A stretch of DNA of 1,786 nt, from sequence record M25640.1; one strand, given 5' to 3'. A program made the translations under genes and the position numbers. The DNA is from Escherichia phage alpha3. The notes beneath the pieces were generated by a model, which had not been told where the DNA came from, did not search any database, and saw only the letters and a list, made by a program, of their open reading frames with translations. Shown one piece after another: positions 1-1,786 of the stretch (its first letter is position 1; each line of letters starts with the position of its first letter).

Positions 1-72
1 GGTCGTGTGATTGGTACCATCGCTACGACTCAGGTTATTCATGAATACCAAGTCCTTCAGCCGCTTAAATAA
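1..72 (+). CDS. G: 3' end of major spike protein G (partial; start is upstream of the window)
   Basis: Frame 1 is open from nt 1 and reads GRVIGTIATTQVIHEYQVLQPLK, then TAA at 70-72. The ...QVI.E...LQPLK-stop ending matches the C-terminus of phiX174 G as I recall it (...NQVIKEIICLQPLK). The ORF lies directly upstream of H, as in the microvirus order F-G-H-A. Only 23 codons are visible. Confidence 0.75.
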   Translation, partial: GRVIGTIATTQVIHEYQVLQPLK

Positions 73-99
73 AAGGCTGCCGCACTCCCGGTTAGATGC

Positions 100-117
100 C
101 TGCCCAGTGTAGGGCAG
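100..117 (+). repeat. Inverted repeat / stem-loop: 6-bp stem CTGCCC (100-105) with GGGCAG (112-117), 6-nt loop AGTGTA
   Basis: Perfect Watson-Crick complementarity read directly from the sequence; all-GC-rich stem, no following U-tract. Confidence 0.6.
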
Positions 118-155
118 ACCGAGCCGTACGGAGATACCCGATAAACTAGGAACGT

Positions 156-176
156 GGAAGGCGTTAGCCGCCTTCC
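156..176 (+). repeat. Inverted repeat / stem-loop: 8-bp stem GGAAGGCG (156-163) with CGCCTTCC (169-176), 5-nt loop TTAGC
   Basis: Perfect 8-bp complementarity read directly from the sequence; followed by CTCCTG rather than a U-tract, so not a canonical intrinsic terminator. Confidence 0.6.
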
Positions 177-194
177 CTCCTGCTAAGCCCAAAA

Positions 195-199
195 AGGAG
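195..199 (+). promoter_or_regulatory. Shine-Dalgarno sequence (AGGAG) for gene H
   Basis: AGGAG at 195-199, 8 nt upstream of the H ATG at 208. Confidence 0.7.
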
Positions 200-207
200 T
201 TACAGCG

Positions 208-1200
208 ATGTTAGGTGCCGTTGTTGGTGGCATTGCCTCAGCCTTAGCTAGTGGTGCCGCTTCGAAATTATTTGGAGGCTCTCAGCGTGGAGTTTCTGTT
301 ATGCAGCAAGGTGCCGAGTCTGCCGGATTGACTAACGGCGGCGGCGCCATTTCTATGGATAATGACCAAGGTATTCAGTCTGCTATTCAAGGCTCGAATG
401 TTCCTCCTGCTGGTCAGCTTCCTGAGTCTCAGAACTCTGGTGTTATGGCTGATGCTGGTAACATGCTTCGTAATGCTGGAAAGTCTTTGCTTGACGGAAC
501 TATTCAGGCTGGTTCTGATAAAGTTAAGCAAGCACTTATTGATAAGTTGATTGGAGGTAATGATGCTAAAGACCGAGGAAAGGCAACCCGCGATTACTTG
601 GCTGCGGCCTTCCCTGAGCTCAACCCATGGGAACGTGCTGGAGCTGGTGCTTCCACTGCCGGGTTAGAATCTTCTGCTCAGAATCAGCAGAAAGAGATGC
701 TGAAGATGCAATTGGATAATCAGAAAGATATTGCAAAAATGCAGATGGATAACAATTTGCAGATTGCTGGTATTCAGTCTGCCACTTCTCGTCAAAATAC
801 GAAGGATTCTGTTTATGCCCAGAATGAGATGCTTCAGTATAATCAACGTGAGTCGCAGGCACGCGTTGCGTCTATCCTCGCCAACACTGACCTCACGACT
901 AAACAGGCTACCCATGAAATCATGAGGATGGCCCTTACCCGTGCTCAGGAGACTGGTCAGCATTTGACTAACTCTCAGATTATGGCTTTGGAGAAAAAGG
1001 TCTATGCAGAAATTGGAAAAATTCATCAAGATACTCAAAACTCTCGCTATGGTAGCTCTCAAGTTACTGCCGCTGCGAAAGATGTTACGAATATGATTAC
1101 CGATGCCGCTTCAGGTGCTTCTGATTGGGTTTCTCAGCAGTGGAATTCGTTCTTTAAGGATGGTAAGTCCAACGGTATTTCCCTTAATACCAGAAAATAA
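208..1200 (+). CDS. H: Minor spike / DNA pilot protein H (complete, 330 aa)
   Basis: ATG at 208 with SD 8 nt upstream, TAA at 1198-1200. The translation is collinear with phiX174 H as I recall it: Gly-rich hydrophobic N-terminus MxGAxxGGIASALAxGAxSKLFGG, then AIQGSNVP, TRDYLAAAFPELNxWERAGA, KMQLDNQK, IAGIQSATSRQNTKDxVYAQNEML, ARVASI, QNxRYGSS and C-terminal FxKDGKxxGIxxNxxRK. Similar length (330 vs 328 aa). Follows G as expected. Confidence 0.95.
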   Translation: MLGAVVGGIASALASGAASKLFGGSQRGVSVMQQGAESAGLTNGGGAISMDNDQGIQSAIQGSNVPPAGQLPESQNSGVMADAGNMLRNAGKSLLDGTIQAGSDKVKQALIDKLIGGNDAKDRGKATRDYLAAAFPELNPWERAGAGASTAGLESSAQNQQKEMLKMQLDNQKDIAKMQMDNNLQIAGIQSATSRQNTKDSVYAQNEMLQYNQRESQARVASILANTDLTTKQATHEIMRMALTRAQETGQHLTNSQIMALEKKVYAEIGKIHQDTQNSRYGSSQVTAAAKDVTNMITDAASGASDWVSQQWNSFFKDGKSNGISLNTRK

Positions 1201-1203
1201 TTG

Positions 1204-1209
1204 TTGACA
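1204..1209 (+). promoter_or_regulatory. -35-like hexamer TTGACA just downstream of the H stop (positional counterpart of the phiX174 promoter upstream of gene A)
   Basis: Perfect TTGACA at 1204-1209, 4 nt after the H stop, where phiX174 also has TTGACA after H. No convincing -10 hexamer at 16-18 nt spacing (AGACTC/GACTCT region), so promoter activity is uncertain. Confidence 0.4.
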
Positions 1210-1226
1210 TTCCCTAAACCCTTATG

Positions 1227-1265
1227 AGACTCTTGCTTCAACGAAACGAAGTAGGAGTCTTTTTT
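1227..1265 (+). terminator. Rho-independent-terminator-like hairpin with U-tract; Shine-Dalgarno AGGAG (1253-1257) embedded in the 3' arm
   Basis: 13-bp stem (1227-1239 pairs with 1248-1260; 11 Watson-Crick plus 2 G-U pairs), 8-nt loop AACGAAAC, followed by TTTTT (1261-1265) and then ATG at 1266. Same layout as the phiX174 hairpin GCCTCCAAATCTTGGAGGCTTTTTTATG before gene A, as I recall it. Confidence 0.5.
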
Positions 1266-1409
1266 ATGAAACCAGCTCATCGCCTCTATCATCCTGTGCT
1301 TGGTTCTTGGTTGTTTAAGTGCCCCGTTTATGTTCGTTATGAGTCCCTTCATCACGGTCGCCTCATTAAGGTTCGTGCTGTTCGTGACCTTTCCCGCGTC
1401 AGCAGTTGA
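1266..1409 (+). CDS. Hypothetical small basic protein (47 aa), candidate leader ORF
   Basis: ATG at 1266 sits 8 nt after AGGAG (1253-1257) and directly after the U-tract, at the position equivalent to the phiX174 gene A start. It reads MKPAHRLYHPVLGSWLFKCPVYVRYESLHHGRLIKVRAVRDLSRVSS, then TGA at 1407-1409 (9 K/R, 4 H, 2 D/E). I recognise no homolog; expression is unproven. Confidence 0.35.
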   Translation: MKPAHRLYHPVLGSWLFKCPVYVRYESLHHGRLIKVRAVRDLSRVSS

Positions 1410-1633
1410 TTGCCAATCCTAAAAATTGCTTTGACGTTGTCATTGCTGAGATTGACGTTACTCACCTTTCTGTCACTTGGTATGATTTTGAAGCTGAAGA
1501 GTATGCTGAGTGTGATTCCGGCACTATGGAGCTTGTTGTTTCTCAGGTAAATTCTGGCGAGGTTATTCGCTCATCTGAAGACCTGTTTGTTGATGTTGAT
1601 GATATGGAATGGCCTTATGAAATTGCGGAGTAA
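1406..1633 (+). CDS. Hypothetical highly acidic protein (75 aa, TTG start)
   Basis: ORF from the six-frame track. The TTG start at 1406 overlaps the TGA stop of the preceding ORF (TTGA); no independent SD. 19 Asp/Glu versus 2 Lys/Arg. TAA at 1631-1633. An alternative internal ATG at 1526 has no SD. Coding status uncertain. Confidence 0.3.
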   Translation: MIANPKNCFDVVIAEIDVTHLSVTWYDFEAEEYAECDSGTMELVVSQVNSGEVIRSSEDLFVDVDDMEWPYEIAE

Positions 1634-1636
1634 GTC

Positions 1637-1726
1637 ATGGAAACTGTTATCGGAAAATTTATTGCTCTGGCTATTGTTGCTCTTATGCTGTATGGAATTG
1701 CCTGTTTGATTCGGAGGTTTCCGTGA
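1637..1726 (+). CDS. Hypothetical 29-aa hydrophobic single-helix membrane peptide
   Basis: ATG at 1637 is preceded by GGAG (1627-1630) at 6-nt spacing. It reads METVIGKFIALAIVALMLYGIACLIRRFP, then TGA at 1724-1726. An 18-residue uninterrupted hydrophobic core is flanked by K7 and R26-R27. Too short for the supplied ORF track; found by manual reading. Confidence 0.4.
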   Translation: METVIGKFIALAIVALMLYGIACLIRRFP

Positions 1727-1786
1727 AATATTTTAGTTTGGTAGATGAACATTATGCTTACTGCCCTGATACAAGGATTTTGCACA
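1723..1786 (+). CDS. 5' end of next gene (partial; GTG start), possibly replication initiation protein A
   Basis: GTG at 1723 is preceded by a strong SD, GGAGG (1713-1717), at 5-nt spacing and overlaps the upstream stop (GTGA). It is open to the window end: (M)KYFSLVDEHYAYCPDTRILH. There is weak resemblance to the phiX174 A N-terminus MVRSYYPSECHADYFDFERIE (shared H, Y and RI at equivalent spacing), and gene A is expected after H. Only 21 codons are visible. Confidence 0.4.
   Translation, partial: MKYFSLVDEHYAYCPDTRILH

Follow-up and report, generated by a model that had tools for sequence, protein, structure and literature searches.

The window analyzed here, 1,786 nucleotides (nt) of the genome of Escherichia phage alpha3 (M25640.1), ends between the genes H and A, in a stretch that the alpha3 records leave without annotation over about 758 nt. 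We found that positions 1201-1786 of the window, which cover the first 586 nt of this stretch, are the first part of a three-gene accessory cassette present only in alpha3-like microviruses (Alphatrevirus). Its open reading frames (ORFs), designated ORF1, ORF2, and ORF3, meet at two conserved junctions, where the Shine-Dalgarno sequence (SD) of the downstream gene lies inside the upstream coding sequence, close to the stop codon. As judged from sequence, this layout fits the classic termination-reinitiation arrangement, and we lean towards partial translational coupling that would coordinate the three products. By megablast, window positions 1-1200 correspond to positions 4888-6087 of the coliphage alpha3 record X60322/NC_001330 with 100% identity, and positions 1201-1786 match its positions 1-586 exactly, the record being circular. 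The features that carry the argument are the following.

1266..1633, plus strand: ORF1, 122 amino acids (aa) with a missing C restored; conserved frame, low ratio of nonsynonymous to synonymous substitutions (dN/dS), AlphaFold2 model
1627..1630, plus strand: GGAG, SD of ORF2, within the two final ORF1 codons, 6 nt upstream of ATG 1637
1637..1726, plus strand: ORF2, 29 aa, predicted single-pass membrane peptide METVIGKFIALAIVALMLYGIACLIRRFP, intact in relatives, with a hydrophobic core
1713..1717, plus strand: GGAGG, SD of ORF3, inside ORF2 codons 26-27 and 5 nt ahead of GTG 1723
1723..1786, plus strand: first 21 of the 58 codons of ORF3, which continues to a TGA at window-equivalent positions 1897-1899

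An initial annotation of this stretch had pointed to stop/start overlaps and buried SDs at three places as signs of translational coupling, and its coordinates are exact at all three. The GGAGG at 1713-1717 falls in the codons CGG AGG of the 29-aa ORF, and the TGA stop of this ORF (1724-1726) is overlapped by the GTG codon at 1723-1725 within the tetranucleotide GTGA (1723-1726). Similarly, the GGAG at 1627-1630 belongs to the codons GCG GAG ahead of the TAA at 1631-1633, with the ATG at 1637. At the third place, TTG (1406-1408) and TGA (1407-1409) do overlap as described, but the junction is an artefact of a C missing in X60322 only; the observation as a whole is thus partly confirmed, as two real conserved junctions and one artefact. 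The bare motifs occur in the window at chance level, GGAGG being seen 5 times (2.8 +/- 1.6 expected) and RTGA 33 times (32.5 expected), and therefore any significance must come from comparison with relatives.

The junctions were compared in 24 genomes and contigs, including isolates, IMG/VR, Logan/ENA, and other metagenome contigs, and the geometry proved to be conserved both between ORF1 and ORF2 and between ORF2 and the GTG-initiated ORF. The ORF2 stop and the ORF3 start overlap by exactly 4 nt in 23 of the 24 (17 GTGA and 6 ATGA), and the gap between the ORF1 stop and the ORF2 ATG (TAA-gtc-ATG, 1631-1639, in alpha3) is 3 nt in 23 relatives and 0 nt in the other one. The ORF2/ORF3 junction is represented by 19 distinct 24-mers, each containing an SD, and two classes of it are seen. 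The first (17 cases) has the form (G)GAGG-N5-GTGA with an ORF2 tail in RRFP (or LRFP, WRFP); GGAGG stands at the same spacing in 16 of these 17 GTG-start relatives, and GAGG in phiK. The second (7 cases) has the form AGGA(G)-N6-7-ATG(A), with AGGA or AGGAG located 6-7 nt upstream of the ATG in all seven and with tails of 28-30-codon ORFs such as SRTLK, NRILK, DRTLR, and SRSLK. The geometry is kept in the most divergent relative found, L016 (ORF1 against the family profile, E = 8e-16), in which ORF3 is about 90% identical. The SD of ORF2 is GGAG in 21 of the 24, GGGG in NC3, GGAA in L017, and absent in L016. That the exact overlap and the SD have survived sequence turnover and indels provides good evidence for this site as the start of ORF3, and such conservation indicates that the juxtaposition of ORF2 and ORF3 is itself under selection. 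At 0.08, the nucleotide diversity of ORF2 and ORF3 resembles that of genes A, C, and J, and being within this range it calls for no extra constraint.

ORF1 became visible only after correction of the reference sequence. X60322, and with it the window, is one C short in the C-run at about 1393-1395, whereas the resequenced alpha3 genome DQ085810.2 has the extra C, which in a MAFFT alignment of 15 H-A regions is present in all 14 sequences besides X60322 (DQ085810.2 and 13 others). When the C is restored, a 61-aa ORF (1224-1409) and a 75-aa acidic ORF (1406-1633) merge into the 122-aa ORF1, which runs from ATG 1266 to the TAA at 1631-1633. Since resequenced alpha3 and all relatives have this C, the overlap at 1406-1409 very probably reflects a sequencing error of 1992 and not a gene junction. 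The window also has G at positions 1535 and 1538 where DQ085810.2 has C (ELVVSQ versus ELLLSQ); the closest relatives, St-1, NC35, NC3, and Lilleven, agree here with DQ085810.2, the distant ones being too divergent for comparison. Both the missing C and these two G residues are probable errors in the reference record. ATG 1266 is conserved and preceded by AGGAG 9 nt upstream, whereas the in-frame ATG 1224 is not conserved, because the length of a T-run varies among relatives. In the annotation of phage Lilleven, ORF1 appears as a 122-aa hypothetical protein. In St-1 (L004), a 1-nt deletion at about position 231 splits ORF1 into ORFs of 108 aa (counted from an in-frame ATG further upstream) and 68 aa; the split could be either a sequencing error or a real pseudogene.

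Substitution patterns were examined by the Nei-Gojobori method in 13-14 genomes. For ORF1, dN/dS is 0.19 against 1.2-1.8 in the alternative frames, and the variable sites at codon positions 1, 2, and 3 number 43, 34, and 96, respectively. For ORF3, dN/dS is 0.08 against 1.0-1.9, with 12, 7, and 30 variable sites. Variation dominated by third positions together with low dN/dS in their own frames identifies ORF1 and ORF3 as real genes, which are under purifying selection in these frames. The length of ORF3 is 58 codons in all relatives except phiK (70 codons), according to ORF maps of the 15 H-A regions and the comparison of the 24 relatives. ORF2 is intact in 24 of 24 relatives at 28-30 aa; its ATG is conserved and its stop lies at the start of ORF3. 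It has a dN/dS of 0.32-0.35 and codon position 2 invariant over codons 1-25. Its residues 4-25 form a 22-residue hydrophobic core (grand average of hydropathy 2.48), which is followed by basic residues. Lilleven and the metagenome contigs L019/L020 and L021 have gene calls for ORF2.

The AlphaFold2 model of ORF1 is confident, with a mean predicted local distance difference test score (pLDDT) of 90.4 and a predicted template modelling score of 0.81, obtained from only 18 sequences. The protein combines a basic N-terminal half (isoelectric point 10.4) with an acidic C-terminal half (4.05). A Foldseek search against BFVD retrieved A0A4D6DYX2, a 122-aa protein that is 94% identical and evidently belongs to the ORF1 family; besides it, there was one marginal match only (E 5.6e-3, TM score 0.45). 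The model of ORF3 is moderate (pLDDT 76.6), and ORF3 shows borderline similarity to OmpR/ToxR-type domains in their N-terminal sheet and first helix. We also considered ORF3 as a paralogue of the N-terminal domain of ORF1, given a likeness between RLIKVR..SPR and RILHIT..DPR, and rejected it (hhalign probability 1%).

The distribution of the cassette is narrow. The 586-nt query matched 26 records, all of them alpha3-like, and protein homologues were found on microvirus-type contigs only, the full-length ones being about 6 kb. Neither a word-indexed search of proteins nor a full HMMER profile search covering 1.84 billion representatives recovered anything beyond the same family (three clusters by profile), and no distant homologues appeared. 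Searches of Pfam and PHROGs gave nothing significant for ORF1, ORF2, ORF3, or two further ORFs that overlap them out of frame, and a profile-based sequence search of PDB gave nothing credible.

Two elements upstream of ORF1 bear on how the cassette may be expressed.

1204..1209, plus strand: TTGACA, a -35-like hexamer directly after the H stop, the first element of an H-A module of the phiX174 type
1226..1265, plus strand: terminator-like hairpin followed by T6; 14-pair stem at 1226-1261, T6 at 1260-1265 abutting the ORF1 ATG, with the ORF1 SD (AGGAG, 1252-1256) in the 3' arm

The hairpin at 1226-1261 folds as RNA at -20.2 kcal/mol (z -4.28, with none of 200 shuffles as stable); it is the only match of the terminator scan, and its arms are conserved in all relatives. 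The promoter scan recognized no plus-strand promoter at 1204, the hexamers at spacings of 16-18 nt (GAGACT, AGACTC, and GACTCT) bearing no recognizable -10 box. Consensus scans likewise predicted no plus-strand promoter or terminator between the hairpin and the promoter of gene A (positions 697-726 of the alpha3 sequence L002), and this lack of predicted internal signals fits a single polycistronic message. ORF1, ORF2, and ORF3 would be translated from one polycistronic RNA, arising by read-through of a leaky terminator after gene H or from a weak promoter at 1204. On read-through RNA, the hairpin may limit initiation at ORF1. Ribosomes finishing ORF1 or ORF2 would then re-initiate at the adjacent SD and start codon, tying the output of ORF2 and ORF3 to that of ORF1, while gene A would be expressed separately, outside this relay. 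Given good SDs that no conserved structure masks, coupling is probably a supplement to independent initiation rather than an absolute requirement.

Overlapping or abutting stop and start codons couple translation, usually at least in part, in E. coli trpE-trpD and trpB-trpA and in genes V-VII-IX of the phages f1 and M13. In f1, genes VII and IX encode hydrophobic proteins of 33 and 32 aa, and the start of gene VII is intrinsically defective and wholly dependent on coupling. The alpha3 cassette resembles f1 V-VII-IX in having a gene for a very small hydrophobic protein within the relay. In contrast to f1 gene VII, its downstream starts have good SDs and no conserved masking structure, and their dependence on upstream translation is probably partial.

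Several observations weigh against coupling. Both the transcription of the cassette and the translation of ORF2 are things that we infer. The SD of ORF3 is strong and well spaced (GGAGG 5 nt from GTG), which makes de novo initiation possible. The initial annotation had looked to RNA structure around 1700-1730, and a hairpin pairing 1691-1703 with 1715-1725 could indeed bury the SD and the GTG, but the segment 1690-1750 folds no better than its shuffles (z -0.66). Nor is this hairpin conserved: 84% of the alignment cells are paired versus 82% in column shuffles, two of the pairs are disrupted (in 6 of 11 and 9 of 11 distinct sequences), and those that persist show no variation. As the fold is neither better than shuffles nor conserved, obligatory coupling through a masked ribosome-binding site is not supported. 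In ID32, a 1-nt gap separates ORF2 and ORF3 in place of the overlap, and ORF3 is still intact. The substitution counts in ORF2 (9 synonymous and 9 amino-acid variants in its own frame versus 9 and 7 in the +1 frame) do not separate the two frames, so that the coding status of ORF2 rests on its conserved start, SD, and stop position and on its transmembrane character. Finally, the tight junctions could reflect only pressure on a capsid-limited phage to keep its genome small. RNA structure at the ORF1/ORF2 junction (1600-1670) and around ORF2/ORF3 is likewise not significant (z from -0.10 to +1.13).

The main rival to partial coupling develops the last of these arguments: all three genes are real, each is initiated independently, and the overlaps merely record the removal of spacers in a capsid-limited single-stranded DNA phage. 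This is a serious alternative, which we nevertheless consider to have distinctly less than an even chance. It agrees with the strong and well-spaced SDs (GGAGG-N5-GTG and GGAG-N6-ATG), with the failure to find a conserved SD-masking structure, and with the loss of the overlap that ID32 tolerates. The type of start codon and SD also co-vary (GTG with GGAGG, or with GAGG in phiK; ATG with AGGA/AGGAG), as expected if selection acts on the efficiency of SD-driven initiation. Moreover, the canonical junctions of alpha3 are just as tight (B/K, TGATG; D/J, TGAtATG); these Bullavirinae junctions, with their phiX174 equivalents, share with the cassette junctions a common strand, a stop within 0-4 nt of the next start, and an SD inside the upstream coding sequence. 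The cassette junctions differ from these canonical ones in joining accessory ORFs that are unannotated in the alpha3 references and, in one case, in using GTG with the 4-nt overlap GTGA. What speaks against simple compaction is that the exact 4-nt overlap outlasts complete rewriting of the junction and indels that vary ORF2 between 28 and 30 codons, in 23 of 24 relatives, where other overlap lengths would be tolerated; the coupling usually seen in E. coli trpE-trpD and trpB-trpA and in f1 V-VII also counts against it.

Another explanation assigns no function to the ORF2 peptide, so that ORF2 would only carry ribosomes from ORF1 to the ORF3 start. The inability of substitutions to tell its frame from +1, the dN/dS that reaches only 0.32-0.35, and the variable C-terminal tail (RRFP, SRTLK, NRILK, DRTLR, and others) all suit this explanation, as does a single low-coverage contig in which ORF2 codons 1-22 are fused to ORF3. 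Yet the transmembrane segment formed by the first ~21 residues is of textbook type and near-invariant in the 24 relatives including L016, codon position 2 does not vary over codons 1-25, and a pure relay would have no need of 29 conserved hydrophobic codons. We therefore regard such a role for ORF2 as improbable. The fused contig itself (L023, positions 298-534, an ENA contig at 2.2x coverage) has a deletion of about 27 nt through which ORF2 continues in frame into ORF3 at about residue 5 of the latter, and the product (P0022) is 78 aa long; it is either a natural variant or an artefact of low-coverage assembly.

The initial annotation had regarded GTG 1723 as plausibly the start of the replication protein A, whose translation would depend on passage of ribosomes through the small ORFs, a possible means of dosage control. 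In favor of this is position alone, gene A directly following H in phiX174, and we consider it almost certainly wrong. GTG 1723 opens an ORF of only 58 codons (70 in phiK), which has no Pfam or PHROGs match and no Phage_GPA domain, while the start of gene A lies beyond the window, about 236 nt downstream and in another frame. That start has its annotation at record position 759-760 (window-equivalent ~1959), about 60 nt past the ORF3 stop, and in metagenomic relatives the Phage_GPA domain (PF05840) is found on the product that follows the 58-aa ORF. Gene A has a promoter of its own, TTGACA-18-TATATT with 11 of 12 consensus matches, which is the only plus-strand promoter match in the first 900 nt of the record, and it is preceded by a GCCCTC...GAGGGC hairpin and a T-run, with the SD in the 3' arm of the hairpin. 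As gene A thus lies elsewhere with its own expression signals, there is no basis for gating of its translation by the small ORFs. The interpretation of the initial annotation is therefore partly supported: the coupling-type layout holds, and the identification of gene A and the dosage control do not.

The -35 box (TTGACA) of the gene A promoter contains the stop codon of ORF3, and two relatives show changes in this area. In phiK (L005, ~695-700), a change of TTGACA to TTGGCA removes the ORF3 stop, yielding the 70-aa product, and weakens the -35 box. In NC35 (L009, ~700-730), a 29-nt deletion removes the -10 box TATATT and the 5' arm of the pre-A hairpin and leaves TTGACA in place; expression of gene A in this phage may depend on transcripts reading through from the ORF1-3 cassette or on another promoter.

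That the region is non-coding, with chance open frames in a T-rich spacer, as implied by the absence of any annotated coding sequence in NC_001330, DQ085810.2, St-1, phiK, WA13, and others and by the lack of Pfam and PHROGs matches, is scarcely credible in view of the third-position-dominated variation and dN/dS of 0.08-0.19 found only in the ORF1 and ORF3 frames, the confident AlphaFold2 model of ORF1, the conserved starts, stops, and SDs, and an ORF2/ORF3 diversity like that of C, J, and A.

The region upstream of ORF1 suggests how the cassette may have arisen. In phiX174, gene H ends at 3917 and gene A starts at 3981, and the 63 nt between them contain no ORF; this H-A module consists of TTGACA-17-TTTCAT, a GCCTCC/GGAGGC hairpin with an annotated transcription start in its loop, T6, and the ATG of gene A. 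Alpha3 has a module of this type twice, after H and before ORF1 (1204-1268, or 1198-1268 counted from TAATT) and again before gene A (L002 691-765). Both copies begin with TAATT(G/C)TTGACA and the cassette of about 690 nt lies between them, whereas the single copy of phiX174 serves gene A. The H-proximal copy of alpha3, without a recognizable -10 box, serves ORF1, and the pre-A copy has TATATT. The arrangement suggests an origin of the cassette in which the ancestral H-A intergenic module either received an insertion or was duplicated. A bolder proposal, and one that we advance as rather unlikely in its entirety, is that ORF1-3 constitute a stoichiometric accessory module of alpha3-like microviruses with this same origin, in which the 4-nt overlap and the 3-nt gap would fix the ratio of the products by hand-over of ribosomes. 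Host takeover, superinfection exclusion, or anti-defence would be possible roles for such a module.

The two out-of-frame ORFs mentioned above are rich in Leu, Trp, and Cys and open in every relative.

1587-1709, plus strand: off-frame ORF, 40-123 aa among relatives
1745-1786 onwards, plus strand: off-frame ORF, 38-43 aa among relatives

As genes they were rejected, because dN/dS in the alternative frames across ORF1 and ORF3 is about 1.0-1.9; they appear to be by-products of T-rich hydrophobic coding frames. Within the ORF2 stretch, the counts leave the +1 frame compatible with coding. Rokyta et al. (2006), as cited by Wichman and Brown (2010; PMC2935103), reported five conserved additional reading frames that are confined to alpha3- and WA13-like phages. 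The citing passage gives no genome positions; ORF1-3 are very probably three of these five frames, and the three accessory ORFs had thus very probably been noticed in the literature already. Identification of the two off-frame ORFs with the remaining two is a guess. Relative to the five frames as they are cited there, the present substitution analysis backs three as coding.

The practical value of these results lies in annotation. NC_001330, DQ085810.2, and most alpha3-like genomes label as intergenic some 750 nt that contain three conserved genes, the largest of which, ORF1, is hidden in X60322 by the frameshift error; users of alpha3, St-1, and WA13 in studies of evolution or in synthetic biology should treat the H-A stretch as coding. 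The cassette is the only sizeable difference in gene content between alpha3-like phages and phiX174 or G4, and it encodes an orphan protein, ORF1, with a confidently predicted fold. The coupling layout itself is a textbook arrangement and introduces no new principle, amounting to routine operon-style packing.

The remainder of the window, upstream of the cassette, contains the following features.

1..72, plus strand: 3' end of gene G (major spike protein), 100% identical to record positions 4888-4959 (G is annotated at 4396-4959)
73..207, plus strand: G-H intergenic region with two stable stem-loops, at 100-117 and 156-176; context, outside the main finding
208..1200, plus strand: gene H (minor spike/pilot protein, 330 aa), present in the ORF list and annotated at record positions 5095-6087; PF04687 (Microvir_H) on homologues

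In the G-H intergenic region, which folds as DNA at -23.1 kcal/mol (z -1.88), the stem-loops are formed by CTGCCC/GGGCAG at 100-117 and by GGAAGGCG/CGCCTTCC at 156-176. The region is well conserved, with a diversity of 0.088 among six genomes, and we take it to be the site to which mapping assigned the primase-dependent complementary-strand origins of alpha3, St-1, and phiK. An Rfam scan of the window at E <= 1 gave chance matches only, well under the gathering scores, and no family for the G-H region. Inside gene H, GGAGGTAATGATG at 553-565 combines a strong SD with two out-of-frame ATG codons and opens a 38-aa ORF listed at 551-667; this combination is probably due to chance.

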